In this document: positions 36,265 through 56,871 of the stretch, in pieces
How the letters are laid out: every line of letters starts with the position of its first letter
How positions within the stretch are numbered: the stretch's first letter is position 1
From: a virus
Lineage: Duplodnaviria; Caudoviricetes
Virus record (IMG/VR): IMGVR_UViG_3300044984_002334
Location: 1 to 59,189 of that record
Reading direction: 5' to 3' (one strand)
Length of the DNA stretch: 59,189 bases
The notes under the pieces: generated by a model
The model's input: only the letters and a program-made list of their open reading frames with translations
What the model was told of the DNA's origin: nothing
Databases searched by the model: none
Translations under genes and position numbers: made by a program

Positions 36265-36693
36265 TCATGTAGTGATTTCAATATATATTTTCTCCTTTAA
36301 TAGTGTAGCCAGTAACAGTTTATACAACTTATTAAAGGTGCTTTTTGAGTTTATAATTTTAGACCCTACTTTATTACCTACAAGCAAGCAGCCAGATGAA
36401 TCAGCTTCAGTATTGCCAGGATGAATTCGAATTCCTTCAAACACAGGTACATTAAGTAAAAGTGGAAGAGCTCGTTTAAATCGGGGAGAGTGAGAAATGA
36501 TTACCTCATATACCCCGTAAGGAATAGCAGTTTCATGCTTTATTTTTAAAGACATTAACTGTTCTTTACTTTGCAACTTATTTAACCCTCTATCCTTATC
36601 TTCTAACACATCACAATAGAATTCGTTGTTTATATATAACTGACCTATTGTGTTTGTCTGGTTAAACTCAGTTCTTTTTAATGTTAACTCCAT
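36265..36693 (-). CDS. DUF5675-family protein, predicted L,D-peptidase-like cell-wall enzyme (candidate endolysin)
   Basis: TIG.L.......C..LED, TAIP.G.Y, SPRF, L.NVP.FEGIRIHPGN...DSSGCLLVG with the conserved H and C. Confidence 0.8.
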   Translation of the reverse strand: MELTLKRTEFNQTNTIGQLYINNEFYCDVLEDKDRGLNKLQSKEQLMSLKIKHETAIPYGVYEVIISHSPRFKRALPLLLNVPVFEGIRIHPGNTEADSSGCLLVGNKVGSKIINSKSTFNKLYKLLLATLLKEKIYIEITT

Positions 36694-38382: not shown

Positions 38383-38833
38383 TTTTAATTTTCTTTGTTA
38401 TTAAGTACTGCGCAAGTAACGATACATATTCTATGAACTCCTCAGATTCTGTGTAAGCTCCTACGATATCTTTAATTTGTGCAACGTTATCTGTATTGTC
38501 ATCAGCCAAAACTTTAAAGATTTCTAAACGCAATCCTTCAGTACCGATCAAGATTTTAGACAAATTCTCATCTTTAATCATAAGAACTAACTGTGCAGTA
38601 GCTTCTTTTTCTAAAGTTATAAATGCTTCAGATGTAAGTGTTTGCTTTAAAATTTCTTTGATTTGCTCTTCATTATTAGGATTGCTATCAAGCAACGCAT
38701 CTGTAATTAAGCTAGCGCGATCAAATATAAGTTGAGTGGTTACAACAGCTGAAGTATTGTGTATGTGAGAAAGTATTTCGTTCTGAAATTTACCTATGCA
38801 GAACTTAAGAAGTTTTAAAAATAATTTTTTCAT
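38363..38833 (-). CDS. Hypothetical protein with internal duplication
   Basis: LLDSNPNNEEQIKEI...SEAFI versus LADDNTDNVAQIKDI...SEEFI. Confidence 0.65.
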   Translation of the reverse strand: MKKLFLKLLKFCIGKFQNEILSHIHNTSAVVTTQLIFDRASLITDALLDSNPNNEEQIKEILKQTLTSEAFITLEKEATAQLVLMIKDENLSKILIGTEGLRLEIFKVLADDNTDNVAQIKDIVGAYTESEEFIEYVSLLAQYLITKKIKNGRNSK

Positions 38834-39399
38834 TTTATGTGTGTTTTATTTATTGCAATACCACCTATTCCAACTATCTCTCCACCAACTTTACGTGGAT
38901 ACCTTATTACGTATAGATCTATTGTTTGATCTTTAATTTTAATCGTCTCTGTCAAAAATACAATTTCTTTGTGCGCTAATAAATCATTGACTTTAAAAGT
39001 TTCAGCTTCTTCTTTAGACCACAACTCTTCGTCTTTCTTACCTATGTAATCAGAAGATATTTTACCACGAGGTATAAGGAAAGCACTTTCATATGCTCGG
39101 TTTAAGGAAAGCATTGTTCCATCTCTATCTTTAATCCACATAGGAATTGGTAATTCCATATGAGCTGTTTCAAGTAAAACAAGTTTCACTTTAAATTCAT
39201 TTAGCATGTCTTCTAGATGATCTATCTTAATTTTTAAAGCTGTTTCTAAGTCTCTTAATCTTTGATTGTCATCTCTCCACAATTGTATGATAGCACTAAA
39301 ATCTTCCCTGCCTTCTTTTCGTTTTGCTAAATAAAGATTTACTATGGCTGCTAAACCCCCTCCACCTATAAATAGAAGTATATCTTTAAATACATCCAT
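38830..39399 (-). CDS. Membrane-anchored coiled-coil plus PAS-domain protein (holin-like N-terminus)
   Basis: TM ILLFIGGGGLAAIVNLYL, heptad region, then PAS_4-like LPIPMWIKDRDG.ML.LNRAYE...DYIGKKDEELW..EEA..F..ND and terminal GEIVGIGGIA strand. Confidence 0.75.
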   Translation of the reverse strand: MDVFKDILLFIGGGGLAAIVNLYLAKRKEGREDFSAIIQLWRDDNQRLRDLETALKIKIDHLEDMLNEFKVKLVLLETAHMELPIPMWIKDRDGTMLSLNRAYESAFLIPRGKISSDYIGKKDEELWSKEEAETFKVNDLLAHKEIVFLTETIKIKDQTIDLYVIRYPRKVGGEIVGIGGIAINKTHIK

Positions 39400-39400
39400 G

Positions 39401-40042
39401 TTAATTTAAAACTTTTACCGTGTAAACACCTGAAGGAATAGTGGGAGTAGTACTCGAAGTAGAATTTGCTATACGAATTGTAACTACATTTTCATTTAAA
39501 ACAAAGGCACTGATAGTCAAACCAGTTAAATAACTAGTAGTGGGTGCGGAAACGAGTACCATGCTTCCAACAGTAGCGCCAGTAACATTGATTGTTAAAT
39601 CTTTACTTGTGTTAGCAGCTATTGTTGTAAATGCTAAAGTATCACTAGCTGATAAAATAGAAGAAAATGTTTGTGAAGTTAAAGCAATAACACCGCTAGC
39701 ATCTGGAAAAGTGATTTGTTGTGTAGCTGTTAAACTACTAAATTCTAATTTAAGTTGAACACTGTTGTTACTAGCATAGTCATAAAAATTAATGTATGGT
39801 TGTCCAGTAGAAGTATTAGCAAGTTTTAATGTGTGATTTCCGCCAAAATCGAGAGTGACTGGTCCAGTAGTAAGTGCGCCTACTTGAGGATCGTAATTTC
39901 CTGCCATTGTTATGGTTTGAAAATTTAATTCTTCTGGAAAAGTTGAAATGTATTGTTTTATAATTGGAACTGCTGCAATATTTAAAGAGGTAGTGGCGTC
40001 TGAATTCCCTCTCATTATGGAAATAGGTAAATATAAACTCAT
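39401..40042 (-). CDS. Putative tail fibre/adaptor protein
   Basis: LTATQQITFPDASGVIALTS fibre-type motif and a C-terminal beta domain (TINVTGATVGSMVLVS...VTIRIAN). Confidence 0.55.
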   Translation of the reverse strand: MSLYLPISIMRGNSDATTSLNIAAVPIIKQYISTFPEELNFQTITMAGNYDPQVGALTTGPVTLDFGGNHTLKLANTSTGQPYINFYDYASNNSVQLKLEFSSLTATQQITFPDASGVIALTSQTFSSILSASDTLAFTTIAANTSKDLTINVTGATVGSMVLVSAPTTSYLTGLTISAFVLNENVVTIRIANSTSSTTPTIPSGVYTVKVLN

Positions 40043-40093
40043 CTTATTTTTGTAGTTTTTACCAGAAAAAGCTGGTCAATTTGTATTTCATAT

Positions 40094-41749
40094 TTAAAAA
40101 GTTGAAAGTGCTACTCGTTTCCATCCGGTGGACGCTTTGAAATAAATATAATCGTCATCTACGGACACGTCGCCCGCCGCGCCGTTTGCGTCTGCCGATC
40201 CAGTTGGGGTGTATTGAGTTACTAATCTTAACTGTGTATATCCGTTTGTACCTGTAATGGTGACGTTGGAAGTAGGGACCGTTGTGCTGCCAAATGCGGA
40301 TTTACCAACAAAATTATTTACCGCCGTCGTACCTGTTTGATATATTGCTTTTCTTGCAGTACCGCCTGTATTTGTTCCATCTGCTGAAATTTCTAAGGCC
40401 CGAAAGTCTGCCGATGCTGTTAGGATCGGATTTATAAATACGTTTCTAACTATACCCGATGCGCCACCGGTTTGATTTGTGGTTGTCGTTAATTGAATTT
40501 CACTGAAAGTACACGTGCCGGATGTTGGAGCAAAAATATTTGAAAAAAGTGTTCCGTATTTTGTGCCCGACGTTGTTGAAAAACTACTGTTTCCAATTCT
40601 TATACCAGTACCCGACGCGTTGTTACTTGAATTTAACACAATTGCCTGTGTGCTTGCGGCGCTCGTTGATATTGATATTGTGCCCGAACTATTGCCTAAT
40701 GTCAATGCTTGCGCACTATTCCCGATCGTAAAGCCTGCCGTTGTTGTGATACCTGTGTTAAGATATGATGCTGCGGATACTCCCGCGCTGCTGAATACCC
40801 TTAACCCTGATCCCGGACTAAAATTAAATTGTTCGACCAATGCTCCTGCATTATTAACAAGACTTATTCCAAGGTTACCCGTACGGCTCGCGTGTGTCGC
40901 TGTGCCCCATTTTGCAGATATTTGCGCGGCATCCTGATTGTCTGTTGTTGTTGTTTCCAGTTCAAACAGTAGCCCGGCTCCAAAATTATCGGCTGTGGTA
41001 CCGGTGCTATTTGCTTGAATAGTTAATGCCTCTTGCACCGTTGCCGTGTTTGCTGTGACAACCGTTTGCGTAATTGCACCGCCTGTTGTTGCCGCTCCTG
41101 CAATTGTTTGCCGAACCACGCCGTTTGTCTCAAACGAAAGTGCATTTGCATCGTTGGTTCCGATTAATACGGTTGTGCCTGTTGTGTTACCTCCGTTAAT
41201 AATATCCCCGGCCCCGCCTGTTATCGTCGTATTGGTTACGCTTGTTATACGCCCGTCCGCATCTACGGCAAAAACAGGCACCTGTGTTGCGCTTCCGTAT
41301 GTGGCGGCTGTTACCGTTGTGCTTTCCAATTCCGAACTTCCCACTGCGTTTGCTGCGATCTTTGCCGCTGTTACCGCGTCGTTTGCAATTGCCCAAGTTG
41401 TGCCTCCATCATTTACTGTAATATCACCTTTGCTACCATCGGTAATACCCCCACCAGATACTGTTGTATTAGTTACTGAAGTAATCTGGCCTTTAGCATT
41501 TACTGCGAACACAGGAATTTGAGAAGCTGAACCATAAGTGTTAGCTGTAACAGAAGTATTAGCTAACATTGTTGAAGAAACCCCATTAGACTTAATAGAA
41601 AGAATCTGACTATCAGTACCATTTCCTGAGAATATAGTTGTGTCTACGGTTATAGAATCGCTTTTAATTAAGTTTATTAACTCACTGTAAGATTGCGAAT
41701 AAACATTTGCTCCAAATAAAATGAAGCTGCATAAAATATAATTTTTCAT
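40094..41749 (-). CDS. Fibre-like protein with N-terminal signal peptide (ORF track start 41773; ATG 41749 preferred)
   Basis: MKNYILCSFILFGANVYS|Q; G/T/S-rich shaft with a duplicated ~40-aa unit; C-terminal GDVSVDDDYIYFKASTGWKRVALSTF fibre-type motif; ATG lies 2 nt after the upstream stop. Confidence 0.7.
   Translation of the reverse strand: MKNYILCSFILFGANVYSQSYSELINLIKSDSITVDTTIFSGNGTDSQILSIKSNGVSSTMLANTSVTANTYGSASQIPVFAVNAKGQITSVTNTTVSGGGITDGSKGDITVNDGGTTWAIANDAVTAAKIAANAVGSSELESTTVTAATYGSATQVPVFAVDADGRITSVTNTTITGGAGDIINGGNTTGTTVLIGTNDANALSFETNGVVRQTIAGAATTGGAITQTVVTANTATVQEALTIQANSTGTTADNFGAGLLFELETTTTDNQDAAQISAKWGTATHASRTGNLGISLVNNAGALVEQFNFSPGSGLRVFSSAGVSAASYLNTGITTTAGFTIGNSAQALTLGNSSGTISISTSAASTQAIVLNSSNNASGTGIRIGNSSFSTTSGTKYGTLFSNIFAPTSGTCTFSEIQLTTTTNQTGGASGIVRNVFINPILTASADFRALEISADGTNTGGTARKAIYQTGTTAVNNFVGKSAFGSTTVPTSNVTITGTNGYTQLRLVTQYTPTGSADANGAAGDVSVDDDYIYFKASTGWKRVALSTF
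41225..41560 (-). repeat. Duplicated ~40-aa shaft unit
   Basis: TSVTANTYGSASQIPVFAVNAKGQITSVTNTTVSGG versus TTVTAATYGSATQVPVFAVDADGRITSVTNTTITGG. Confidence 0.8.
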
Positions 41750-41751
41750 AG

Positions 41752-44700
41752 TTATAATATTAAACGATACCATCTTAACCCATTTGTATTGTAAACATAA
41801 GAATACGTATCTCCTCCTTTTGCTGGGGAAGCAGGAACGCTGGCTTGATAAATAGTTTTACCTGCGCTAGCATTTATAGTTAAGGTGGTAATAAGGTTAG
41901 AACCTGTAGGTATAGTGCCACCAAAAACAATAGTAACAACTTGTCCTTCGTAAGGATTCGCTGGTAAGACAAATGTATGTGATGCTATAAGTGTTGGTAT
42001 ATTTATCACTACTCTTGAAATGTTATTTGCAAGTGACGTAGTTGCAGCTGAGGTTAAAGATGTGGCATAAAATGTAGTTCCTAAACTAACACCACTAGGT
42101 ATAGTTGCTATTCCTGTAGTTCCAGCTACTGTGACATATGGTGTTATAGTTCCAGTTCCAGATTGATATGACATTACCAAATTATCTAAGTTGTCATGTA
42201 AAAGACTCCAAGTATCTCCAGCACCATTAGTATTCAATAACAAAAGATTAGAGGCTGTATCAGCAACTGCATTACCCCGACCATCAATACGTATTGCTCC
42301 AGCAAATCTTGCATTTCCTTCTACACGTAATTTAACCGCAGCTAATACTGCAGCACCTATTGCAACATTAGTATTGTTAGTAACTATAGCGCTACTTCCT
42401 GCTATTGAAGTTCCGTTATAATATAACATTTGAGACGAACTACCGCCAATTAACGACGCTAAATTCGCATTCGTTGCGTTACTTATTGTAGCAACACCTG
42501 CTGTAACATTATTATATAAAAAACCTGAACTTAAAGCTCCTAGGTTTTGCTCATTAGTTAAAGTAGGTTCTGAAGTAGAAGTAACAAAAGATAATCCTGT
42601 ACCTACACCACCTCCTGTAGGATTTTTAGGTTCCCAGATAGAAGTTGTATTATTCCATGCAATTACTTGACCGTCTGTAGGAAGAACTGTACTGAGTGCT
42701 CTTGTAGCTAACCTAGTATCTACATAACCTTTATCAGTTAAAGATCTATTTGTGTAACCAGTTTTATAATCAGCTGCATATTGTAATCCTTTAGAAGTAG
42801 CCCTATTATCTGTTACAATCATATCTCCTGTACTATTATTCAATTCTAGTTGGATGTTATCACCAAATACATTCCAACTAGCTGTGCCAGTTAGTGAAAA
42901 TGATGTTACTCCACCTGTTATCGTATTTACTGTGATACCATTTCCATAATCATTTATAGATCCATCTTCTAAGGAGTTGCCACCTAAAGCAACTTTTGGT
43001 ATTCTATTTACCGTAAGTGTTGAAGTTTTACCAATTTTATTATTGAACGTTGACCAATCTGTGCTGTTTAATGCACCACGAGCAGTTGCCGATGCAGTTG
43101 GTAAATTAAATGTATGTGAATTGGATGCAGAATTAATTACAAAATCTGTTCCAGAAGTACCTGTAACTAATGTTTGCGCGTTTCCAGTTAAGGAATTCAA
43201 AGAAGTTAAGGCATTAGCACTAACAGTTAATGTGTTAGAAGCTGCAAAATAAGTTGTTCCAATAATACCAGATCCGTTAACAGTTAAAGTTTGCCCACCT
43301 AAATTCTCAGAATTAGTGCCATCTGTTAGTGTAAGATTTTCATTTGTTACACTACCATCCACCTCTGTACCAGTTACAATTATAGTACCAGCCGATTGAG
43401 TAACTGCATTAATGCCAGCCCCTGCAATTGTAGCAGTACCGCCTCCAGTTCCTGATATTGCGTTAAGTGACAGTATTCCGGTTGCTACACCTGTTACTGT
43501 CAGCGTTTGTGCCTCATTTGTTATGCTACCATCTACTTCCGTTGCCGTTATGGTAATCGTGCCTCCATTTGCAGATATTGTTTCTGCAATAGCATTAATG
43601 CCAGCGGCGTTGATTGTTACACCTGTTGCACCCGACGTGTTGGAGGTAATTACCGAAGAAGCGGCACCACCAGCGCCTACTCCTATTAATCCCTCGTTAG
43701 TTACGCTACCATCTACCTCCGTTCCTGTTATGGTGAAATTAGGATACGTGCCGGTTGCTACATTAATACCAGCCCCTGTAATTGCGACTGTTTGGTCGGG
43801 TGCTGTATTTGTTATTGTTGCAATACCGTCTAATGTTGTTCCTGTTGTTGCAATTCCTATTCCGGTGCCCTCGGCTAACTGTAGAGAACCTCCGGTATTG
43901 CTAAGTGTAACAGTATGAGTAGTTGCGTTTGAGGTGTTTGCAAGTGTTTGCAGTTCCAGTGTGGCCGGGTCGAGTGTGGAGCGCACTGCTATGCCGGAAG
44001 CGTCGAGTTGTAGCAGGCGGTTTCCTGTGCCGGATAGGTTGTCGAAGATTACGGCGCGGTCGTCTCTGACGGAAAAGGCTAATTGACTACTGCTATTCCG
44101 CATGCGAACGGAATAAGTAGACGAGGTACTACCAGTGCCTGTTACAGTCATCTTATTATTACTGTTGGGAGTGCTTCCTACGCCTGTATTACCTTTTAGG
44201 TAGTTATTATTCGTAGATACATCTGAATATAAAAAGTATTTGCTCCCTGTTACAGACGATAAGTTAAGGTTATCAAATACGCCATACTGATTCACAACAG
44301 ACCCTCCAGAATTTGTCGCGCCTTCCAATAGTAACCCGTATAAATTTGATGTTGTTGTACCCGCTCCGTTGGTTGCCATATATGCCCTATATCCTGTTTG
44401 TGTATTTCCAGTTAGCCGCGAATTAATTATAAGCGCATTAATGCCGTAAGCGGTTTTTGACTCCTTAACCTCTAACTCTATACCATATCCGGTGTTCCAT
44501 CTGCCTGTACTATTATCGAGCACACGCGCATTTATGCCGCGCGCTGTATGAGCATCCCGCGTATCACTATATCTGTTAACGTCGAACTGTAGTCCATTGC
44601 AATACTGAACATCGCCCGTCGTTGCAAAGTTATTAATAACGCCAAACACTCCTCTAATACCTAATGCTGTACCGGAATTATTTGTAGTAGTACTTTGGAA

Positions 44701-46620
44701 TCCAGCTGTGTTGATGTTTACGGTTTCAACTGGAATTATAACGTCTGATTTCATTCCGTATGCAAACAAAGATGACGGTGCGCCAGTAGAGCCTAATGTT
44801 ATACTGCTGTTATATCCATTTATATTTGTATTACTCGTGGACGATGTTCCTGAATATACTACTCTGTTAAGATATGTATTAGCACTTATAATGCCTGAAC
44901 TTTGGTGAACGTAGGTGCCGTCCGTGTAAATGGAATTGTTGCCTAATCCCGGAGTTATCCGTAGCCCCGTACCGTTATAAGTGAAATTTGCATTACTTGT
45001 AATAGAATTAACATTATTCCAGTACGCCACACGTTCATTGCTCCCGCTGCCCGTTACCCCTCCGCCAGCCGTAATATCTGCCGCCACCAACCCCCGAAAC
45101 GCCGGAGTAGCAAGACCACCAGAAGTTGGCCCAGCGAATACTGTATTGGCCGACTGCGTGAATAGTGCCGTTGCTAACGTGCCGGAGCCTGTAACAGGCG
45201 AACCTGACACCGAAAAAATGGACGGCATGGTAAGTCCCACACTTGTAACTGTACCAACCGGTGCAGTAATCCATGAAGGAGAGGTCCCGTTAGTGGATAG
45301 TATTTTCCCAGTGTTGCCAGTCTGGGTGGGCAATTCTATTTCGTTGGTGATACTGCTATCTGCAACTGTACTATTTTGCCACCACTTACTAGCACTATTA
45401 TATGTCAAAACCTGCCCATTGGTCGGACTTGTCAACTTAACGTCGTGTAACTCGTTTAACCCTTCGCCGTTTTGCACATTTGCGTATATGATACCTACAG
45501 CCGCATGCTGTCTAACACAATACCCTACTATCACCTCATGATTAGGCGCTGTTGGAAGGGTAGCGGTTATGCCGCCGGGAACGGTTGGTGAAAGATACAA
45601 AGGTGCGCCCTCCGGGAATGCCGACGTATTAAGACCTCTTACCAGCCCCTCCGTTGTTACATATCCCTCCTGATTATTTGCAATATTTTCTGTTGCAATA
45701 CCCAATACAGTATTGGTTGTGCTGTCACTGCTTGCGCTTGCAATTCTGACCGCTATTCGATTACCCTGCGCCCCTGATACGTAAACTACCTGGCCATTAT
45801 TTATCGTTGTACCGGATTTATTGACCACCCGTGCAAGTGATTCCTGACCGACCTGCAATGTAACATTTCCGCCTTTCATACCCAAGTCAAGGGTGCCGTC
45901 TGTATCGTTCCATCGAAAAGTGCCGATACCGCCGGGCAAAGTTGGTAACGTGTTGAATGATAATCGGTCGAGCGTGTCAATCCTGATAACAGTACCGTCT
46001 ATTGCAATTCCTTCACCGGCCGTGTAAGAAGTGCCGCCCCCGCTACCACTGGCTATCCAAATAGTTCCATTAGATCTATAAATTTGTCCAAAAGAGTTTT
46101 TCCAAAGTTCTCCTTGTTTGCCAACTGCTGTTACAGCTGGCTGCACTCCTTCCGCTCCTATATAGTCAGTTATCTCTTTTGCATCTTTTATATATTTATC
46201 GACTTGAATAACTAATCTGTTCCGTATAAGAGAAGCTAAGTCGTTCCTCAAAGAAGAAGGAAAAGAAGGAAGTTTATAAAATGTAGATGGATGTATAATT
46301 GCTGCCTCTCCATATGGGACATCTGGAGCAATATCAGAAAACACTTCCATTTCTAGTATAGAACCAGAAGCAAGTATAATACTTGTGACTGTGAATATAG
46401 AAAGATTAGGTCCGTCTAATGTATATAAAGAATCATTAATAGAAACTGAAGTGGCATCAAAAGCACCTAAGTCATCTCCAGTAATTCCAGTAATGTTAAA
46501 ATAACCTCCTCCTGTGCGAGCCACAGTAGTAATTTCATATCTCATTATAGGATTAATGGGAACTTGAGCATTTGTTGAAAATATACAAAAAATCCCAAAT
46601 ACTAAAAGTAAAACTCTCAT
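41752..46620 (-). CDS. Large mosaic tail-fibre/adhesin-like protein with N-terminal signal peptide
   Basis: MRVLLLVFGIFCIFSTNA|Q; phage fibre modules (LNELHDVKLTSPTNGQVLTYN...WQN, GTVTSVGL, PTDGQVIAWN, FNLPTASATARGAL...DW.TFNNK); EVDGS.TNE repeats. Confidence 0.75.
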   Translation of the reverse strand: MRVLLLVFGIFCIFSTNAQVPINPIMRYEITTVARTGGGYFNITGITGDDLGAFDATSVSINDSLYTLDGPNLSIFTVTSIILASGSILEMEVFSDIAPDVPYGEAAIIHPSTFYKLPSFPSSLRNDLASLIRNRLVIQVDKYIKDAKEITDYIGAEGVQPAVTAVGKQGELWKNSFGQIYRSNGTIWIASGSGGGTSYTAGEGIAIDGTVIRIDTLDRLSFNTLPTLPGGIGTFRWNDTDGTLDLGMKGGNVTLQVGQESLARVVNKSGTTINNGQVVYVSGAQGNRIAVRIASASSDSTTNTVLGIATENIANNQEGYVTTEGLVRGLNTSAFPEGAPLYLSPTVPGGITATLPTAPNHEVIVGYCVRQHAAVGIIYANVQNGEGLNELHDVKLTSPTNGQVLTYNSASKWWQNSTVADSSITNEIELPTQTGNTGKILSTNGTSPSWITAPVGTVTSVGLTMPSIFSVSGSPVTGSGTLATALFTQSANTVFAGPTSGGLATPAFRGLVAADITAGGGVTGSGSNERVAYWNNVNSITSNANFTYNGTGLRITPGLGNNSIYTDGTYVHQSSGIISANTYLNRVVYSGTSSTSNTNINGYNSSITLGSTGAPSSLFAYGMKSDVIIPVETVNINTAGFQSTTTNNSGTALGIRGVFGVINNFATTGDVQYCNGLQFDVNRYSDTRDAHTARGINARVLDNSTGRWNTGYGIELEVKESKTAYGINALIINSRLTGNTQTGYRAYMATNGAGTTTSNLYGLLLEGATNSGGSVVNQYGVFDNLNLSSVTGSKYFLYSDVSTNNNYLKGNTGVGSTPNSNNKMTVTGTGSTSSTYSVRMRNSSSQLAFSVRDDRAVIFDNLSGTGNRLLQLDASGIAVRSTLDPATLELQTLANTSNATTHTVTLSNTGGSLQLAEGTGIGIATTGTTLDGIATITNTAPDQTVAITGAGINVATGTYPNFTITGTEVDGSVTNEGLIGVGAGGAASSVITSNTSGATGVTINAAGINAIAETISANGGTITITATEVDGSITNEAQTLTVTGVATGILSLNAISGTGGGTATIAGAGINAVTQSAGTIIVTGTEVDGSVTNENLTLTDGTNSENLGGQTLTVNGSGIIGTTYFAASNTLTVSANALTSLNSLTGNAQTLVTGTSGTDFVINSASNSHTFNLPTASATARGALNSTDWSTFNNKIGKTSTLTVNRIPKVALGGNSLEDGSINDYGNGITVNTITGGVTSFSLTGTASWNVFGDNIQLELNNSTGDMIVTDNRATSKGLQYAADYKTGYTNRSLTDKGYVDTRLATRALSTVLPTDGQVIAWNNTTSIWEPKNPTGGGVGTGLSFVTSTSEPTLTNEQNLGALSSGFLYNNVTAGVATISNATNANLASLIGGSSSQMLYYNGTSIAGSSAIVTNNTNVAIGAAVLAAVKLRVEGNARFAGAIRIDGRGNAVADTASNLLLLNTNGAGDTWSLLHDNLDNLVMSYQSGTGTITPYVTVAGTTGIATIPSGVSLGTTFYATSLTSAATTSLANNISRVVINIPTLIASHTFVLPANPYEGQVVTIVFGGTIPTGSNLITTLTINASAGKTIYQASVPASPAKGGDTYSYVYNTNGLRWYRLIL
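43335..43795 (-). repeat. Three imperfect repeats encoding (G/A)AGIN...IT(G/A)TEVDGS(V/I)TNE
   Basis: Related DNA and protein units near 43340-43425, 43512-43612 and 43692-43785. Confidence 0.75.
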
Positions 46621-46621
46621 G

Positions 46622-48007
46622 TTAAAAATTAAATTTAAGTGCCCAACTAGTTCCTATACCATTTAAATTTAAGATTCTAATTGATAAATGACTAGTACTA
46701 TCTATACATTGGATTTGTGGAGTATTATCTATGTCATAGATGTGTGGAACTCCCGCTGAAGCAGGCCCACCTAAAATCATATTTATTTTAGTTACTGAAG
46801 GATAATCAGCTGCTTCCGTGAGTGGGAAAGTAACAGTGAAATTATTAGCAGCTAGATCAGAACTTCTGCCGATAATTCTTGCCGATATAAGAATTACTCC
46901 TAAAGGAATATTAAAAGTACCTTCTCCTACAACTTTAGAAAAAGTAATGCCAGTTCCAGTAGCCATTACATATGCATTATTACCAGCGCTATATTTGACG
47001 ATTCCAGATCCGCCTCCGCCTGCAGGAGCATCTCCCTTATAAAGTTTTCCTGTAATATCTTCTATATAGAGAACTTTGTCTGTAGTTCCCGTATCAAGAT
47101 TATTGATAAAATGCCCAGAATTATTTATTGTTAAATTTCTATTATAGGTTCCATCAAACTGCTCCATTGTGATTGAGTTTTCGGAAACCATAGATATAGC
47201 AGCTTTTATATTACCATTTACTTGTCGAAGAGAAGTAAGCGTACCATCTGGGTCAACACGCATTTCTGCATATCTATTTGAGTTATTATTTGTTTCAGAA
47301 CGTAACGCTCCACCAGCTATTAAACTAGAAGTTAGATAAAGTGTGGTTCTAGCATTAGTACCTATATTGTTGTCTGCTTCTAAAGTAATAGACGTTGTAT
47401 CATTTATAGTTAAATATTTTGAGAACGCTCCGTTTATAATAGTATTTTGATTAAGAGTTCCTCCTAATCTATACTTATCTAAAGGAGCTCCTGTACCAGA
47501 AATACCATTTTCAGAAAAGCCAGAACCTATAGATGTTTCAAGAGCTTGAAGTGCTGCTTTAATAGTTGAATTATCTGGAATTGTATTACCTGTAAATATT
47601 CCTAAATTAGTTGAATTTGAGGCTACCCCAGTAAGGGTCGTAAGATCTTCTACATCTAACTCAAGATTATCTAAGTTAACTGGTTGAGTAATTGTAATAA
47701 ATGATTCTTTTGTTTTACCAGCTGCTGTTTGTAATCCAGCAAGTAAGTTGGTAGCTGCAGGAAGTGTTACATCTGCGCCACTAGATGAGTTTACGTCTAT
47801 TGTAGAGGCAGTATTATTAGCAAGTGAAAGATTAGTAATTCCTGAACCTGAACCGGCGTAAGTAATTGCGTCTAGCACGTAATTAAATAATGAGATAGCG
47901 TCATTAGGTATATTTAACCCATGAGCTGCGTCATTAGCATTGTTCCGTGAAACAGTAGTATTTTTAGGGATATAAACTCCCTTTAGTTGTTCTAAAGTAT
48001 ATGCCAT
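46622..48007 (-). CDS. Putative head/tail fibre protein (ORF track start 48040; ATG 48007 preferred)
   Basis: TLPAATNLLAGL, LG.FTG.TI.DN.TIK.ALQ.LET and LGG.L.QNT.I fibre-like motifs; the longer start lies inside a terminator hairpin. Confidence 0.6.
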   Translation of the reverse strand: MAYTLEQLKGVYIPKNTTVSRNNANDAAHGLNIPNDAISLFNYVLDAITYAGSGSGITNLSLANNTASTIDVNSSSGADVTLPAATNLLAGLQTAAGKTKESFITITQPVNLDNLELDVEDLTTLTGVASNSTNLGIFTGNTIPDNSTIKAALQALETSIGSGFSENGISGTGAPLDKYRLGGTLNQNTIINGAFSKYLTINDTTSITLEADNNIGTNARTTLYLTSSLIAGGALRSETNNNSNRYAEMRVDPDGTLTSLRQVNGNIKAAISMVSENSITMEQFDGTYNRNLTINNSGHFINNLDTGTTDKVLYIEDITGKLYKGDAPAGGGGSGIVKYSAGNNAYVMATGTGITFSKVVGEGTFNIPLGVILISARIIGRSSDLAANNFTVTFPLTEAADYPSVTKINMILGGPASAGVPHIYDIDNTPQIQCIDSTSHLSIRILNLNGIGTSWALKFNF

Positions 48008-48012
48008 AGGTG

Positions 48013-48047
48013 TAAAAAAAAAGGGGATGCGGAATCCCACACCCCCT
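48013..48047 (-). terminator. Intrinsic terminator ending the capsid operon
   Basis: Minus strand GGGGGTGTGG-GATT-CCGCATCCCC followed by nine T's, just after the stop at 48058. Confidence 0.85.
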
Positions 48048-51376: not shown

Positions 51377-51973
51377 CTAATATTTTTCTATATTTCTATA
51401 AGAAGTTAAACGCTTTAACCAAGCTTCGAACTCAGTTATAGTAGAAGCATTTTTAGCCCAATTGCAATGTTTACAACAAGTAACGATGTTATTAACAGAA
51501 TAACTCTTTGCAGAATCTACCCTATCTAAACCATTGTAATTAAAATTACAAGCGTAGTTAGCTTTAAAGCAATTTGAAGGTGGCGAACCACAATAGTGAC
51601 AAGATTTACTGGTATAATCTAAGAAGACATCTTTTGTAATTTCTACATTAATCCTTCTTCGGTTAGCCCCAGCTAAAAATTTTTGATACAGATTATTTTT
51701 AAATCCTCCACAATCAGGAAGTGTATTTCCAGAACCTGTTTTAGATGTCGTTTCTTTTCTGTAGCATCCGCATGATGTTATTAAACCAGCCTTTACATCT
51801 TTAGGTCTCAACACCACTTTTCTCCCGCAATCACAAGTAAACTCATAAGCTGTGCGTTTTCTACTTCCTTCTATAAAATACCCTACTAAATTATTAACTG
51901 TTAATCTACCGTATTTAGAATTACCCCAGATAATCCTATCTTGGTATGACGGATCTCTAACTAGCTTTGTCAT
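51377..51973 (-). CDS. Free-standing HNH-family (homing-type) endonuclease
   Basis: YGRLTV...CDCG...G...SCGC N-terminal domain and CHYCG...NGLDRVDS...Y...NIVTCCKHCN.AK nuclease domain. Confidence 0.85.
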   Translation of the reverse strand: MTKLVRDPSYQDRIIWGNSKYGRLTVNNLVGYFIEGSRKRTAYEFTCDCGRKVVLRPKDVKAGLITSCGCYRKETTSKTGSGNTLPDCGGFKNNLYQKFLAGANRRRINVEITKDVFLDYTSKSCHYCGSPPSNCFKANYACNFNYNGLDRVDSAKSYSVNNIVTCCKHCNWAKNASTITEFEAWLKRLTSYRNIEKY

Positions 51974-51976
51974 AAC

Positions 51977-53446
51977 TTAATAGTCGAAGTCATATATAAA
52001 TTCCCCCATAGTGGTTGGGTCTTGTACCCAAAGTCCTGCAGTACCTTCACAGAAAACGTCATAACCTGCAACTAAAGAAGAAACACCTGCACCTTTAACA
52101 GGGCCAGTTGGCGAGTGTGTGCCACTCTGGAAACCCCAACGGAAAGTATCTTTAACTTTAAGAACAGAGATATTACCTTTACCTTCTTTCTCGCCTACAT
52201 TAAGGAATGTCATACGGGCAGAATCAACTGGAAGGTTAGGGTAGAGTGGGTGCATCCGTTTAGAATACTTTCTATCGTCATTCATTGGATTCAACATAAG
52301 ATCTAATTGAAGTCCGTGTGGTCCATGATAACGAGTAAACTGTGCGCCAAAAGCAAGATGTGGAGTACTTACGTCAGAAGCAACTGCATTAATAAAGTGG
52401 CTATCTACAGTCAAATAACCATTAGCAATAGATACCAAACTATCGTGAAATAACTGAGCACCAAGTGTTCCTGTTACAGGGACCAATTTGCGTGACTCTT
52501 CACCTACGCGAGTAATTTGAATGTCAAGAATGAAATCTTTAAGTTGGGAAATAGAAAGTGCACCATTGTAGTATTGAACCCAAGAGTCTTTCATATACTC
52601 ACGAAGACCGCTACCTGTTTTCTTCCAAAAACCATTAGTAGCTACAGAAGTGTGCTTTTTACCATATACTAACTGAGCTTCAATAGAGGAATATAAAGCA
52701 TCCCACATTTTAGCTTCGGCATAAGGAAGGAACCGATTAGCTACGCTAGTCTTTCCATCACGGTCAGTATACATGAATTTAACTTCCAAACGACCATCTT
52801 CTCTCCAAGCTTTGTCAGTTACAGAATAACGTTGTGCGAAAGCGCCAACTTGAGATTCAAGTTTAAATGAGCTAGAGTACTGTTGAGTACCGAACTCACC
52901 ATTGCCTTCAGAAGCAACAGAAGACCAAACTTTATTCCACTCAGCACCTACTTCGAAAAGAGAAGCTGGAGCGTAGATAGCTGGATTGTCTGTCTGAAGT
53001 TTCAGTGTGTAGATAGTGCCAGTACCGTCAGTTATTTTATCAATAACCATCCAAGGATACTCATTGTCAATACCGAATAATACGTCAGGGGAAGAGTAAT
53101 AGTCAAGGTCAAGTTTAACCTTAACAGTAGTCAGGTTTATACCTGGAGTTGTGTTAGAAGACTCAAGGTTTTCTACAACCCGTGCAATACGTTCTTCAGC
53201 ACCTGCAAGTGTCCAACGGTAAACTTCAGTTGGAATTTCAATAGTGCGATCAGCTTTACCCATTGTCATATTAGCAAGCAATTTGCCTGTGTATAGATTA
53301 GATGTAGCGGAGAAGATACGTGTGATTTGATTTTCAAAAACGTGTGGGCGGATGTCGTATGAAGTAGCAAGATATTTGCTATTGATATCACTACCACCGA
53401 AACCATCACGTCTTTGGATAATTGTACTTAATGTTGGAACTGCCAT
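51977..53446 (-). CDS. Major capsid protein
   Basis: 489 aa; YRW.L, G.G.RE, TG.LG...FH, FGAQF..Y, MNDD...HP......SARMTF motifs; follows portal and scaffold genes. Confidence 0.9.
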   Translation of the reverse strand: MAVPTLSTIIQRRDGFGGSDINSKYLATSYDIRPHVFENQITRIFSATSNLYTGKLLANMTMGKADRTIEIPTEVYRWTLAGAEERIARVVENLESSNTTPGINLTTVKVKLDLDYYSSPDVLFGIDNEYPWMVIDKITDGTGTIYTLKLQTDNPAIYAPASLFEVGAEWNKVWSSVASEGNGEFGTQQYSSSFKLESQVGAFAQRYSVTDKAWREDGRLEVKFMYTDRDGKTSVANRFLPYAEAKMWDALYSSIEAQLVYGKKHTSVATNGFWKKTGSGLREYMKDSWVQYYNGALSISQLKDFILDIQITRVGEESRKLVPVTGTLGAQLFHDSLVSIANGYLTVDSHFINAVASDVSTPHLAFGAQFTRYHGPHGLQLDLMLNPMNDDRKYSKRMHPLYPNLPVDSARMTFLNVGEKEGKGNISVLKVKDTFRWGFQSGTHSPTGPVKGAGVSSLVAGYDVFCEGTAGLWVQDPTTMGEFIYDFDY

Positions 53447-54498: not shown

Positions 54499-56871
54499 TT
54501 ACTTAGCGGGTTTATTTCGGAGCTTAATAGCTTTCTCTTCGAGATCGAGCTTTCGTTCCTTAAGTTCTACTTCTTTTTGCCATTTTTCAACCTCGAATTG
54601 ATCTGGGATCCCATTATCATTAGAGTCTTGATCTTTAACAAAACTAAAAGACTGAATTTCTGCAACTTTGATTTTTGCTTCAAGTTCCATGTTTTTAAGA
54701 ATAATCTCATGTTGACGGGCAGCGGCAAGTTGTTCTGCATTAGATTGCATTTGAGCTTGTGATTGAGCTTGATCGTTTTTGTTGCGAGCTTCCTCAGAAT
54801 GAATAATCTCAGCTTTAAGAGAAGCGATAGAATTAGCATCAAACATTTTGATAATATCAGAGAAAGATGCACGATCACTTTGAAGTAAAGACAACGAAAG
54901 ATTTTCAAGCTTTTCGAATTTTTTAACGTCTTGATAATTGTTAGAAACAAATAATCCAAAGTCAGAATTTACAACATCATCTGGAGTAAGCTCTAAAACT
55001 TGAATAGAACCGTCATCTAGGATAGCTTGTTTAATAACAGATTTATTCTTAATAGTAAACTGAGCTATTTGTATGAAAGAGTTTAAGATTTCTTCCCACA
55101 ATTTCTCATGTGTGGAATGATACACTTCGGTAACAAGTGATGAATTGTTCGCATTAGATTGGGCATTAGTTACAGCTTGATCAGAAGCAATTCGACCTTC
55201 ACGCTCACGTGCAACACCAGAAACATCACTTAACTGCTGGTCTATATCTTGAAGTAACATGATATAATTATTAATGTCCGAAGCAGTAGACATATTCGTA
55301 ACGCCTGCTATCTTACCTCTTTGAGCAGCTCCAGGTTGCTGAGCGTTCTGAAGTGGATTAAAAAAGTCAATATTTAACTCAGTTAAGTAATAAAGAGTTT
55401 TCTCTAAACCAATTTGAGGATCTACCATTGATGTATCAAAATGGTAAATAGGTCCTTTGTCTTGCGCTATGAGTTTCCTAAGTTTATTACTTACTATAAA
55501 ATAGAGATATAAAAAAGGTTTCATACGATCCATAACACTTACTGGCCGAGCGTTCATAGAAGAGTAAGTGGTTCCGTGATAGCCTAACTTAACCTTAGTT
55601 GGATTATCCATAGAACGAAACTGTATTTCCTTAGGTCCAATTTTGCAGTAAACAGATCTTCCAATTTTAGTAGTTTCCCATACTTCATCTATCCAAGAAT
55701 ACTTAATCTTAAATGGGCTTTTTGTAATAGGGTCCATCCAGTAATAATATTCGCACTTTCGATTAAATGCTTCTGTTACAACTTCTTTTTGAGCATTTTT
55801 AGGCACTGGGTATTCTTCCGCTACAATCTCTATTTCTTCTTCTCCAAATTCATTAACAAACGTAAGGAAGCCAACTTTCTTTTGAGTTTTCCATTCTACG
55901 TGTTGTACGGCAACCATGTTAATGTCATTACCAGAAGAATACTGCCCTTCAGTATTACCTTGATTAAAAGAAGCTAAGTAGTTATCATAATTATATTTCA
56001 TATGATTCTCCCACTTTAAAGAAGAACCTGAAGAAGAAAACTTACTTTGAAGTTCTTCAACTTGCTCATCAGATAAATAATCTTGGTAAGTATCGAGAAC
56101 ATCAGAAAGAGTCATGTATGTTTTATATCCTGCGTACGTACCATCTTGAATATACTTTACATCAGGAGATTTATAGTAAATCATTCCAAGTGGATTAAGT
56201 ACTTGAATAATAGGAGCATTTTCTACATAAGTAACATAAGCAAATTCTTCTCCAGCGATTAGCCCATGCTTAAACCCATCGTTCTTAATTATAGGAATAT
56301 TTAGCATTCGATAATAATAACTAAGTAACTTATTAGCTGCAATTTCTCGTTTGTCCAAGTACTTAGAAGACATATACTTATCAGCTTCGCTTGGGTCTAC
56401 TATTGGAATTTCAGGGTCTATCATCTCCTTGCCAAAAGTTTCGGTAACAGCTTGGATAGCTGTTTGAAGTGAGTTAAGAACAAACTGTTGCACTAACTTG
56501 TCTTTGTAAAGAAGTTTGGAGCGTATACCTGCAGTATCGGTAAGCACAATTTTCCAATCAAATGCACGAGTCATTTCATCAGATAATAAGGAATTAATTT
56601 TATTAGCAGCTTTATTATAAGCTTTAATTTCTTCTTTAAAAGAATCGACTTGAAGACCTAGAGGATTACATTCTTTTTCGAAATCTGCTTGATTAACAAT
56701 ATCATTATATAATTGGTAGTTAACGAGTTTACGTTTATATTCTTCAGAATAAGGTCTAGAGATTGTAGAACTGAAATCTGTAAGTATGTAATCGGTTACT
56801 CTTTTTGCCCATTCAAAATCGTTCGTAGTCTTCTCCCGATATGATAGGCGTTGTCTTAAAAATTTTTGCAT
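54499..56871 (-). CDS. Portal protein
   Basis: 790 aa; NYQLYN, YYKSPD..YI.DG, W.W..EVWE..KIG-like segment, S.MDRMKP..YLY, SGV..EREG, D.NDNGIPD; follows terL. Confidence 0.9.
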   Translation of the reverse strand: MQKFLRQRLSYREKTTNDFEWAKRVTDYILTDFSSTISRPYSEEYKRKLVNYQLYNDIVNQADFEKECNPLGLQVDSFKEEIKAYNKAANKINSLLSDEMTRAFDWKIVLTDTAGIRSKLLYKDKLVQQFVLNSLQTAIQAVTETFGKEMIDPEIPIVDPSEADKYMSSKYLDKREIAANKLLSYYYRMLNIPIIKNDGFKHGLIAGEEFAYVTYVENAPIIQVLNPLGMIYYKSPDVKYIQDGTYAGYKTYMTLSDVLDTYQDYLSDEQVEELQSKFSSSGSSLKWENHMKYNYDNYLASFNQGNTEGQYSSGNDINMVAVQHVEWKTQKKVGFLTFVNEFGEEEIEIVAEEYPVPKNAQKEVVTEAFNRKCEYYYWMDPITKSPFKIKYSWIDEVWETTKIGRSVYCKIGPKEIQFRSMDNPTKVKLGYHGTTYSSMNARPVSVMDRMKPFLYLYFIVSNKLRKLIAQDKGPIYHFDTSMVDPQIGLEKTLYYLTELNIDFFNPLQNAQQPGAAQRGKIAGVTNMSTASDINNYIMLLQDIDQQLSDVSGVAREREGRIASDQAVTNAQSNANNSSLVTEVYHSTHEKLWEEILNSFIQIAQFTIKNKSVIKQAILDDGSIQVLELTPDDVVNSDFGLFVSNNYQDVKKFEKLENLSLSLLQSDRASFSDIIKMFDANSIASLKAEIIHSEEARNKNDQAQSQAQMQSNAEQLAAARQHEIILKNMELEAKIKVAEIQSFSFVKDQDSNDNGIPDQFEVEKWQKEVELKERKLDLEEKAIKLRNKPAK

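Follow-up and report, generated by a model that had tools for sequence, protein, structure and literature searches.

Two adjacent fibre-like proteins encoded in the window, by which we mean the whole 59,189-nucleotide stretch of viral DNA analyzed here, begin with predicted Sec-type signal peptides that end immediately before a glutamine, and since these signals are conserved in relatives, both proteins (P0001 and P0002) seem to be exported to the periplasm. An earlier note had moved from Q-rule signals (Gln at +1) of the Sec/signal peptidase I (SPI) type to export of the fibres, a step that comparative sequence evidence supports and that leads us to a strong inference of predicted export. We propose that the window represents ~59% of the genome of a crAss-like podovirus with a Bacteroidota host.

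Signal peptides and fibre-type bodies of P0001 and P0002

The two genes and their features are as follows (SP, signal peptide).

41752..46620, minus strand: P0001, signal-peptide-bearing fibre-like protein, 1622 aa (open reading frame and translation; start 1 nt past the upstream stop)
46567..46620, minus strand: predicted signal peptide of P0001, residues 1-18, MRVLLLVFGIFCIFSTNA (sequence, hydrophobicity, separate helix in the model, family conservation)
46564..46566, minus strand: Gln19, predicted +1 residue of P0001 after signal peptidase I (invariant in alignments A2, of 20 sequences, and A3)
46045..46566, minus strand: conserved N-terminal domain of predicted mature P0001, residues 19 to about 192 (phmmer, AF2, synteny)
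45361..45972, minus strand: tail-fibre module of P0001, residues about 217-420, common to SP-less fibres of many phages (tblastn, IMG/VR relatives)
40094..41749, minus strand: P0002, the other fibre-like protein with a signal peptide, 551 aa when read from the preferred start (open reading frame; the mechanical one reaches 41773)
41696..41749, minus strand: predicted signal peptide of P0002, MKNYILCSFILFGANVYS (sequence; recurs in homologues; Gln +1 codon 41693-41695)
40250..41215, minus strand: conserved central fibre domain of P0002, residues about 187-508 in 559-aa numbering (homologue coverage, alignment A1)

Both N-termini have a basic n-region, an uncharged hydrophobic core within the expected ~7-15 residues, small uncharged residues at -3/-1 and Gln at +1. 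The P0001 ATG at 46620 lies 1 nt beyond the TAA (46622-46624) that ends the 472-aa gene upstream and opens the sequence MRVLLLVFGIFCIFSTNA followed by QVPINP, in which Arg2 precedes the core VLLLVFGIFCIF and the T-N-A junction places T/A at -3/-1 before Gln19. For P0002, the mechanical reading frame starts at 41773, inside the 3' end of P0001, while the preferred ATG at 41749, 2 nt past the P0001 TAA (41752-41754), gives MKNYILCSFILFGANVYS followed by QSYSEL, with Lys as the second residue, the core YILCSFILFGA and a V-Y-S junction before Gln; the core and the S/Q junction are identical from either start. Translations and the detector described below thus confirm the Q-rule-type anatomy that the earlier note had read at both starts, including the P0002 start as written there.

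The signal is rare within the window. A crude custom detector requiring a basic n-region, an uncharged core and small residues at -3/-1 flagged only P0001 and P0002 among the window ORFs, and over 717 six-frame ATG ORFs with 150 aa or more from the window and loci L002-L104 it called 39 SP-like, 15 of which had Gln at the candidate +1. In a table of 32 large window ORFs, the N-terminus of P0001 stands well clear of all others in hydrophobicity (3.32 as an 11-residue Kyte-Doolittle mean), the next values being 2.25, 2.18 (P0002) and 2.13. GC3 is 0.11-0.28 in the signal peptide and N-terminal domain, as in the rest of the phage, and 0.30-0.34 in the distal bodies.

The bodies are of fibre type, as had been claimed. 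Residues 217-417 of P0001 match cultured-phage proteins annotated as tail-fibre or tail proteins (tblastn), the match to Pseudomonas phage Rollin standing at 48% over 12% of the query, and a P0001 relative is encoded in 340 of 393 pattern-matched IMG/VR stretches; when 80 loci were retained from these 340 relatives of the body module, a classical signal was present in only one. Residues about 187-508 of P0002 match many fibre-like metagenomic proteins, as well as SP-less fibre genes of the siphovirus-type tail modules L002-L004. The closest P0002 relative, P0003 (87% identity), differs in its N-terminal region yet has a signal ending in SA before Gln, and the rule classes 41 of the 120 listed homologues of P0002 as SP-like, with Gln after the core in all 41 (38 called by rule, 3 by eye).

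Other routes were considered for the two proteins. As lipoproteins processed by SPII they were rejected, as the A/Q and S/Q junctions provide no Cys at +1 and Cys occurs only within the hydrophobic cores, without a lipobox. As type IX secretion system (T9SS) cargo they were rejected for want of a type A or type B C-terminal sorting domain; in Pfam and NCBIfam searches of P0001, P0002 and relatives, neither a T9SS C-terminal domain nor another outer-membrane crossing route was found. In Pfam, P0001 had no match and P0002 nothing beyond a sub-threshold one to ribosomal S21e (E 0.066); NCBIfam gave no match for P0001, P0002 or five relatives.

A phage-specific domain directly follows the predicted signal

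In the AF2 model, residues 2-16 of P0001 form a separate helix, and the N-terminal domain (N-domain) consists of a beta-barrel (residues 25-109, pLDDT 90-98) and a subsequent helix (126-145). A phmmer search with this domain returned 141 matches, of which 102 begin at the N-terminus of the protein. The junction of a small residue and Gln directly precedes the domain in all 102 cluster representatives, and a full hydrophobic core is present in 98, the remaining four appearing 5'-truncated. Only Q19 and D63 are invariant columns in alignment A2, and Gln19 is invariant in A3 as well, while the core sequence varies across the family and only its character is kept. P0123, whose N-domain is 36-38% identical to that of P0001, retains the signal peptide followed by Gln; its C-terminus appears beta-helix-like by reading of the sequence only. 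Likewise, each of the eight IMG/VR loci that the N-domain profile retrieved has the signal-Gln junction and then the domain, with the signal inside the open frame. The signal is therefore kept in homologues, as the earlier note had asked to see, and judged by this conservation the predicted signal of P0001 and P0002 is not a chance feature.

A search of 401 sampled cellular genomes, all from the phylum to which G004 belongs, did not find the N-domain and gave only two weak matches, both outside the barrel, and in 50,697 GenBank phage records there was no match at E <= 1e-3. These searches show a phage-specific module restricted, at the level of sequence, to phage contigs, and together with GC3 they uphold the view that the signal segments are phage-like. 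No virion-attachment fold was recognized in the domain, with nothing at E <= 0.001 in PDB Foldseek and weak matches in BFVD (TM at most 0.42).

The signal-bearing genes occupy the fibre slot of a crAss-like module

The crAss-like label rests on the type of terminase (TerL), portal and major capsid protein (MCP), with PHROG TerL, portal and major head matches at E 4e-60 to 7e-100, and on gene order by blastp. The window MCP shares 28% identity with its counterpart in Flavobacterium phage FpV4 and also matches those of Bacteroides and Cellulophaga crAss-like phages. Three neighbours of the fibres matter here.

46622..48040, minus strand: 472-aa SP-less fibre-like protein directly upstream of P0001 (PHROG virion-structural matches, alignment A4, synteny)
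38830..39399, minus strand: 189-aa protein with an N-terminal transmembrane-like segment, putatively holin-like by position only (sequence, position)
36265..36693, minus strand: DUF5675 endolysin-type protein without signal peptide (Pfam PF18925, E 4.6e-31; tblastn)

The 189-aa protein has the position seen in the lysis cassettes of crAss001 and clade contigs, and the DUF5675 protein is 44% identical to crAss001 gp30, with relatives annotated as L,D-carboxypeptidase/transpeptidase. The window and four contigs (L145, L150, L152 and L153) share one gene order: a 240-aa protein, a protein of about 450-490 aa, a 472-like protein, an SP fibre with the same N-domain as P0001, a second SP protein, a transmembrane protein and the DUF5675 endolysin. 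The core of this order (SP-less 472-like gene, SP fibre, second SP protein, lysis genes) recurs among the eight N-domain loci wherever flanks are included, and synteny with these contigs, FpV4 and crAss001 places P0001 and P0002 in the fibre slot. In local blastp alignments the N-domain is 36-49% identical across syntenic contigs, against no more than 21-24% for their MCPs. Despite this divergence the 472-like protein also keeps its C-terminal domain, the last 120 or so residues being retained in six of six aligned clade members (A4). In several loci, lipoprotein-type ORFs adjoin the SP fibres. The searches turned up no relative in culture.

Signal-bearing fibres in other phages

In unrelated siphovirus-like contigs, too, the fibre slot is taken by fibre-like genes with a signal peptide and Gln. 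One of these contigs is a complete 31.4-kb DTR genome (G003), in which the sole protein with tail-fibre PHROG matches (1294 aa) carries signal and Gln, its gene lying between baseplate-region and lysis genes, and similar arrays are present in G001, L023/L033, L110 and L111. After the fibres comes an SP protein of roughly 200 aa whose crAss-like and siphovirus-like versions are weakly homologous (E 3e-7 and 3e-5, searched against a small database), which fits a putative exported fibre accessory. Signals are absent from the fibres of FpV4, crAss001, DAC15 and VA7, the four cultured phages of Bacteroidota that were inspected, and thus this phage group does not in general need an export route.

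Possible fates of the fibres

Tail fibres are expected to be made and attached in the cytoplasm with no export signal, and the conserved predicted signals of both proteins depart from this. In the pathway we propose, the precursors of both fibres would be translocated by the host Sec system and cut by signal peptidase I after TNA in P0001 and VYS in P0002, baring a Gln that host glutaminyl cyclase would turn into pyroglutamate in keeping with the Q-rule; we infer both the cleavage and the pyroglutamate. The fibres would fold and trimerize in the periplasm, with the P0001 barrel-plus-helix domain, which begins exactly at the predicted cleavage site, as a candidate attachment module and the long variable remainder providing reach and receptor binding. 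Because heads and tails are assembled in the cytoplasm, docking of the SP fibres is proposed to wait until the inner membrane has been opened by the holin, and the SP-less DUF5675 endolysin would need the same holes. The 472-aa SP-less protein encoded just upstream may provide the docking site, and the outcome would be a virion put together in two compartments.

That the fibres of the window dock on particles after holin action is quite possible, and we put it forward tentatively; docking at lysis and the identity of the docking partner are speculative. It is also possible, if slightly more doubtful, that an entire crAss-like clade, and independently some siphovirus-like Bacteroidota phages, shifted fibre maturation to the periplasm, the fibres and a small accessory being Sec-exported, trimmed to pyroglutamate, folded in that compartment and docked post-holin on particles built in the cytoplasm. 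If true, this would amount to two-compartment virion assembly with infectivity tied to lysis. To our knowledge, no tailed phage has a tail fibre that passes through the periplasm, nor is such a pathway known for tailed phages, and our literature search found no report of one. Against docking stand the signal-less fibres of the four cultured phages, the SP-less 472-aa protein, which could alone be the virion receptor-binding protein, the near absence of signals among relatives of the P0001 body module (1/80), and an N-domain whose PDB Foldseek and BFVD comparisons gave no recognized attachment fold.

Rather unlikely, but to be weighed seriously, is a different fate in which the proteins are exported and never join the virion, acting late in the periplasm or envelope on the producer cell or its surroundings; they might mask or destroy receptors (sparing progeny from debris and blocking superinfection), clear capsule or matrix, or be released at lysis as free adhesins or depolymerases. 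Sec routing is separate from cytoplasmic tail assembly and would keep the fibres apart from it, the virion fibre proper could be the SP-less protein encoded upstream, beta-helix domains of depolymerase type appear to form the C-terminus of some family members (P0148 carries the source name 'right-handed parallel beta-helix repeat-containing protein'), and in one fibre-like protein of L023/L033 a membrane-anchor-like segment comes after a long, basic N-terminus. Precedents point the same way, as Bdellovibrio MAT fibres are SP-bearing, phage-derived and work as cell-surface adhesins (PMC10769870, from the portion available), and the Q-rule genes of P. gingivalis phages are proposed in the accessible text as possible outer-membrane modifiers (PMC10367356). 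However, the window genes sit in the fibre slot of a late structural operon and are among the best-conserved parts of a module whose MCPs have diverged to 21-24% identity; the G003 SP protein is the only one there with tail-fibre matches; the N-domain was not found in the 401 cellular genomes; a length of up to 2833 aa (L153) would be costly for an accessory role; and the searches found no T9SS domain or outer-membrane crossing route.

Docking after holin action also has to be set against readings of the N-terminus itself. That the start codons are wrong or the hydrophobic stretches fortuitous, the true starts lying downstream, is close to refuted and very improbable. P0001 does have an in-frame Met26 just past the predicted cleavage site, and Bacteroidota-type genes lack strong Shine-Dalgarno sites, which leaves start calls weakly anchored; but both starts abut upstream stops (at distances of 1 and 2 nt), A2 shows no conservation of Met26, and the signal lies inside the open frame in the 8/8 related loci and recurs in the 102/102 family representatives, which answers the downstream-start objection raised in advance by the earlier note. 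It is improbable, though less so, that the hydrophobic N-terminus targets the inner membrane and stays uncleaved or incompletely translocated, the fibres being tethered until lysis or the helix serving structurally in the particle. The signal-anchor-like L023/L033 relative, with no Gln at +1, would suit such tethering, as would the plain helix given by AF2, a model that cannot separate signal from anchor. Yet only the character of the core is conserved, and the variable core sequence argues against a specific structural contact; short cores, small -3/-1 residues and an invariant +1 Gln are instead the signature of cleaved SPI Q-rule substrates (PMC5837995, as far as the available text goes).

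Comparison with known systems

The fibre cassettes of crAss001 (gp22-gp26), DAC15 and FpV4 resemble the window in setting a variable fibre cassette beside a DUF5675 lysis cassette and a TerL-portal-MCP module. The modular bodies in the window share modules with annotated tail fibres, but the fibres of the inspected cultured phages have no signal, whereas both window fibres and all clade relatives have one. Spanins, SAR endolysins and superinfection-exclusion lipoproteins such as T5 Llp are phage-encoded, host-exported and often encoded beside fibre or lysis genes; these are small envelope-acting proteins, in contrast to the predicted exported proteins of the window and its relatives, which span 550-2800 aa and carry tail-fibre modules.

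SPI substrates of Bacteroidota usually follow the Q-rule, with Gln at +1 (PMC5837995, PMC10653852, both in their available parts). Temperate phages of Porphyromonas gingivalis carry five Q-rule genes, of function not known, which like those of the window are phage-encoded with Sec/SPI signals and Gln, but which the accessible part of the report does not describe as fibre-like or as part of a tail module (PMC10367356). The mosaic adhesive trimer (MAT) proteins of Bdellovibrio bacteriovorus combine, in the available portion of their description, a Sec signal peptide, a conserved beta-rich N-domain, a trimeric shaft of variable, phage-fibre-like make-up and exchangeable tips (PMC10769870), and P0001 has the same layout of signal peptide, conserved N-domain and variable, presumably trimeric fibre; the P0002 central-domain profile also picks up Bdellovibrio genes. 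The N-domains show no detectable homology, as hhalign of A2 against A5 gave a probability of 3.5% and aligned only the signal peptide. The MAT signals do not end in Gln, unlike those of P0001 and P0002, and while the MAT genes are described in that portion as chromosomal in the predator, with products on its own surface, the genes of P0001 and P0002 lie in phage structural modules.

Two adjacent fibre-like genes with predicted signal peptides

The minus strand of the window, a linear IMG/VR record with a CheckV completeness of about 59%, forms one long late operon in which TerL, portal and major head protein (MCP) genes were assigned by PHROG matches (E 4e-60 to 7e-100 across the three). An HNH/endonuclease VII-type gene immediately follows the major head gene, where Flavobacterium phage FpV4 also has an HNH endonuclease. 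Next come several conserved head and tail genes, the fibre-like genes P0001 (1622 aa) and P0002 (551 aa), and, 3' of these, small ORFs, of which one encodes a membrane protein and another is of DUF5675 endolysin type. The window also encodes a 1375-aa virion structural protein and a 1047-aa protein with a peptidoglycan-binding domain.

Features of the window
56813-59038, minus strand, TerL
54499-56871, minus strand, portal
51977-53446, minus strand, major head protein (MCP)
51377-51973, minus strand, HNH/endonuclease VII-type gene
46622-48040, minus strand, 472-aa protein without signal peptide (SP), with fibre-like repeats, upstream of the SP fibre
41752-46620, minus strand, P0001, fibre-like protein with predicted SP
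10075-25209, minus strand, 5044-aa ORF downstream of the tail genes
5772-10082, minus strand, 1436-aa ORF downstream of the tail genes

MCP identity to FpV4 is 28%, crAss-like phages infecting Bacteroides, Cellulophaga and Azobacteroides are matched as well, and blastp comparison showed that the window shares its gene order with FpV4 and crAss001. The phage is a divergent crAss-like podovirus, with a member of the Bacteroidota as the most likely host. The 5044-aa and 1436-aa ORFs, the former searched as two halves, had zero PHROG matches at E <= 0.001; their location is reminiscent of the giant virion proteins that crAss-like phages encode. In L145, a related viral locus, the MCP frame is in two pieces, one equivalent to residues 9-217 and the other to residues 293-418 of the window MCP. 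An HTH-type ORF separates them and another ORF follows shortly after, which suggests an intron or homing-element insertion.

P0001 starts 1 nt past the stop of the upstream gene, and its N-terminus reads MRVLLLVFGIFCIFSTNA up to the predicted cleavage site and QVPINP beyond it. The mechanical ORF of P0002 starts at 41773, within P0001; an ATG at 41749, 2 nt past the P0001 stop, gives an N-terminus of MKNYILCSFILFGANVYS followed by QSYSEL. In both proteins a basic residue precedes a hydrophobic core free of charges, positions -3 and -1 are small and +1 is Gln, bearing out the claim of the earlier note that two adjacent fibre-like proteins carry signals obeying the Bacteroidota Q-rule. Such an N-terminus occurs in no other of the window's 32 large ORFs. 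P0001 and P0002 were also the sole window ORFs flagged by our signal peptide detector, which is rule-based and not a trained predictor, and which flagged 39 of 717 six-frame ORFs from the window and about 100 viral loci, 15 of them with Gln at the candidate +1. We firmly infer that both are Sec substrates cleaved before Gln. A start-codon artefact is highly unlikely, and a dual start yielding an SP-less isoform from Met26 was dropped because Met26 is not conserved in the 20-sequence alignment (A2) of the conserved P0001 N-domain, which begins at Gln19.

Conservation of the signal peptide

A phmmer scan of 1.84 billion representative proteins with P0001 residues 1-230 returned 141 matches, 102 of which aligned from the very N-terminus of both proteins. 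The hydrophobic core was present in 98 of these 102 N-domain representatives, the remaining four appearing 5'-truncated, and a small residue and Gln lay directly before the conserved domain in all 102 (90 counted by script and 12 by eye, namely eight with a QAQ-type or QSQ junction and the four truncated sequences). Across the 22-36% identical sequences of A2, no column other than Q19 and D63 is invariant. Because the core sequence varies while the Gln junction is universal and Q19 invariant, the hydrophobic segment is conserved in character and not in sequence. The predicted cleavage-site Gln is the best-conserved residue of the N-domain family, a pattern to be expected if SPI cleavage according to the Q-rule (PMC5837995, PMC10653852) is selected for. 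A scan of IMG/VR for the P0001-type N-domain, made with an eight-sequence alignment (A3), found eight loci from seven contigs (L145 and L151 share a contig); signal, Gln junction and N-domain are present in 8/8 of these loci. Homologues therefore keep the signal in both sets, a check that the earlier note had proposed.

The P0002 family is more mixed. Searching 5.8 billion proteins gave 239 matches, and at least 41 homologues are SP-like by the detector (41 of the 120 matches listed), 38 with Gln at the rule-predicted +1 and three with Gln after the core by eye; the other 79 listed have N-termini mostly like those of ordinary phage fibres, and three SP-less relatives sit in siphovirus-type tail modules (L002-L004). 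The closest relative among the matches listed, P0003, aligns with 79% of P0002 at 87% identity; its N-terminal ~150 aa are unrelated to P0002, yet carry a signal ending in SA before Gln.

Gene neighbourhoods of SP fibres

The four N-domain loci with flanks (L145, L150, L152 and L153) share the gene order of the window: a 240-aa homologue, a ~450-490-aa homologue, a counterpart of the SP-less 472-aa protein, and then the SP fibre, which ranges from 785 to 2833 aa. After it come another SP+Gln protein, of 214-747 aa, a membrane protein and lastly the DUF5675 endolysin. Between these crAss-like phages the MCPs are 21-24% and the fibre N-domains 36-49% identical, in local blastp alignments, the shorter of which flatter the figure.

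SP+Gln fibre-like genes were also found in the fibre slot of unrelated siphovirus-like contigs. In G003 (also L079), a complete 31.4-kb genome with terminal repeats, the sole protein with tail-fibre PHROG matches (1294 aa) has a signal. Its gene is flanked on one side by the tape-measure/baseplate region and on the other by holin-like, lipoprotein and lysozyme-like ORFs that we read, from position and N-terminal sequence only, as lysis genes. Six consecutive SP+Gln ORFs follow the tail genes in G001, and three occur in a row in L023 and L033, one of these proteins having a C-terminus that reads as chaperone-of-endosialidase-like; L110 and L111 contain similar arrays. L023 and L033 additionally encode a 1225-aa relative of the P0001 body module (L023 7569-11246; L033 385-4053), in which ~50 basic residues precede a hydrophobic segment without Gln at +1, an N-terminus more suggestive of a signal-anchor than of a cleaved signal.

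A smaller SP+Gln protein of ~200 aa recurs 3' of SP fibres and could serve the fibres as an exported accessory or chaperone; no copy was found in the window. The crAss-like version (L153) is weakly homologous to the siphovirus-like versions of L023 and G001, with E-values of 3e-7 and 3e-5 from a very small database.

Loci encoding the ~200-aa SP+Gln protein
L153, 18496-19140
L023, 12708-13304
L033, 5469-6071
L101, 11550-12146

Phage origin of the family

A classical signal was present in one of 80 IMG/VR relatives of the P0001 body module (L079), in none of the four fibre cassettes of cultured FpV4, crAss001, DAC15 and B. fragilis phage VA7, and was not found in that of one spring-water podovirus record. 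Among 50,697 GenBank phage records, neither the P0001 N-terminus/N-domain nor P0002 had a tblastn match and the fibre region had no blastn match; SP fibres of L079 and L023 matched only cyanophage, pelagiphage, roseophage and uncultured-phage fibre modules by tblastn, and no cultured relative with SP fibres emerged from these records. On the cellular side, the N-domain gave only two weak matches, both outside the barrel, in 401 genomes sampled from the phylum of G004, whose record bears the title Candidatus Kapaibacterium and which we take to be placed in Bacteroidota by GTDB. A P0002-profile search of genome contigs recovered mostly Bdellovibrio, Saccharibacteria and Kapaibacterium genes, together with two phage-sized contigs in proteobacterial MAGs that obey the Q-rule. 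Within the records and genomes searched, the SP-Gln-N-domain-fibre family is thus a phage family and not a borrowed host gene. The phage-like composition previously attributed to the signal segments was confirmed and agrees with this origin, GC3 being 0.11-0.28 in SP and N-domain versus 0.30-0.34 in the distal bodies.

Several observations adjoin this survey. G+C in 2-kb windows is 0.40-0.46 across the fibre genes (40001-46000) versus 0.32-0.36 in the flanks, and GC3 climbs from 0.11-0.18 (SP and N-domain) to 0.30-0.34 (distal bodies), a gradient that fits later exchange of distal modules than of the resident N-terminal part. L110 (26.6 kb, binned as Gammaproteobacteria) and L111 (28.5 kb, binned as Coxiellaceae) hold arrays of Q-rule SP proteins, which suggests mis-binned phages of Bacteroidota. 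Chromosomal arrays of six and two consecutive fibre-like ORFs occur in the Candidatus Kapaibacterium records L113 (5773-20254) and L112 (6964-9516); with signal-peptide-like N-termini, mostly Gln after the core by eye, and G+C of 54-55%, these have the appearance of secreted fibre proteins encoded by the cell.

Domain architecture

The AF2 model of P0001, built from A2, comprises a detached helix at residues 2-16 that corresponds to the signal, a beta-barrel at 25-109 (pLDDT 90-98) and a helix at 126-145, with disorder from the start of the shaft. Foldseek comparison of the N-domain model with the PDB returned nothing at E <= 0.001, the best hits being generic EF-Tu/FNR-type barrels; BFVD gave four weak matches at E <= 0.001 (TM <= 0.42), one named tail fibre, and the ESM Atlas gave weak leads (0.82) to viral clusters. 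The shaft includes a module at 217-420 that is common in SP-less fibres, in line with the fibre-type modules described in the earlier note, as well as repeats and a small C-terminal tip resembling that of the second SP protein of L152 (E 0.008). The AF2 monomer of P0002 (alignment A1) had a mean pLDDT of 52.6, too low for a fold search.

Searches of P0001 and P0002 revealed neither a T9SS sorting domain nor a lipobox, nor any alternative route across the outer membrane. T9SS cargo was dropped, the CTD being absent by Pfam and NCBIfam, as was periplasmic O-glycosylation, since the motif D[ST][AILVMT] is not enriched (4 observed versus 6.4 expected in P0001, 2 versus 2.8 in P0002, and below shuffled expectation in both homologue groups).

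In the SP-less protein upstream of P0001, the C-terminal ~120 aa are conserved in 6/6 aligned phages while the N-terminal and middle regions vary, an unusual arrangement for a fibre. A locus scan with the 472-aa protein found no loci, and complex prediction of its residues 345-472 with the mature P0001 N-domain (19-195) scored 0.00 (mark 0.32), which speaks neither for nor against binding.

Homologues of the SP-less 472-aa protein
L145, 8478-10016
L148, 8472-10007
L150, 8448-9965
L152, 7173-8240
L153, 8829-9947

Possible docking on particles or action on the envelope

The reading we favour, tentatively, is that SP fibres dock on particles after holin action. Given the predicted Sec export and cleavage before Gln, P0001 and P0002 would fold in the periplasm. 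In holin-endolysin lysis a signal-less endolysin reaches the wall through holin lesions, and since the DUF5675 endolysin lacks a signal, such lesions would be expected in the inner membrane, where they would let cytoplasmic particles and periplasmic fibres mix with the outer membrane still closed. The docking site might be the C-terminal domain of the SP-less 472-like protein, a guess prompted by its conservation in 6/6 phages. Docking is favoured because the SP genes occupy the fibre slot of the late operon and are among its best-conserved parts, because the N-domain is phage-specific, and because the SP protein is the sole fibre-like gene in G003.

The main rival, which we consider possible though doubtful, is that SP proteins never join virions and act on the envelope, masking or destroying receptors, clearing capsule, or serving as free adhesins at lysis. 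In its favour, the SP-less upstream fibre could be the real receptor-binding protein, some relatives appear to have beta-helix domains (P0148 by source name, P0123 by sequence reading), and Bdellovibrio offers a precedent. Set beside the Gln junction found throughout the N-domain family, an uncleaved membrane anchor is unlikely. Should the family stand, either infectious particles are complete only once cytoplasm and periplasm mix at lysis, as docking would have it, or these abundant Bacteroidota phages regularly deliver large adhesins or depolymerases of fibre type to the host envelope. In both cases receptor-binding protein prediction for uncultured Bacteroidota phages would change: signal-peptide filters would wrongly reject SP fibres as non-structural, and Q-rule signals would become a marker for host-phylum assignment. 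Periplasmic folding and pyroglutamate capping are also a possible route to fibre stability.

Comparison with known systems

To our knowledge, the fibres of studied tailed phages are assembled in the cytoplasm, and we rate the SP fibres described here as tail fibres with an export step added. Full-text searches of a PMC and bioRxiv collection found no report of Sec signals on tailed-phage tail fibres. Q-rule genes have been noted in P. gingivalis prophages, as genes of unknown function and not as fibres (PMC10367356).

Five matches of the P0001 search (P0171, P0185, P0202, P0220 and P0243) have SP+Gln and then a FxYQAxARD... motif that by eye resembles TYQGRIK... of the N-domain of the mosaic adhesive trimers (MATs) at Bdellovibrio loci L117, L125 and L129; MAT-like proteins may thus exist in Q-rule organisms or their phages. 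The MAT family is the closest functional analogue of the SP fibres: behind a signal peptide, its members have a beta-rich N-domain that is conserved, and then a phage-like fibre that varies and is displayed on the predator (PMC10769870). Homology of the P0001 N-domain to that of MATs was rejected, and whereas MATs are cellular genes, the SP fibre genes described here are phage genes.
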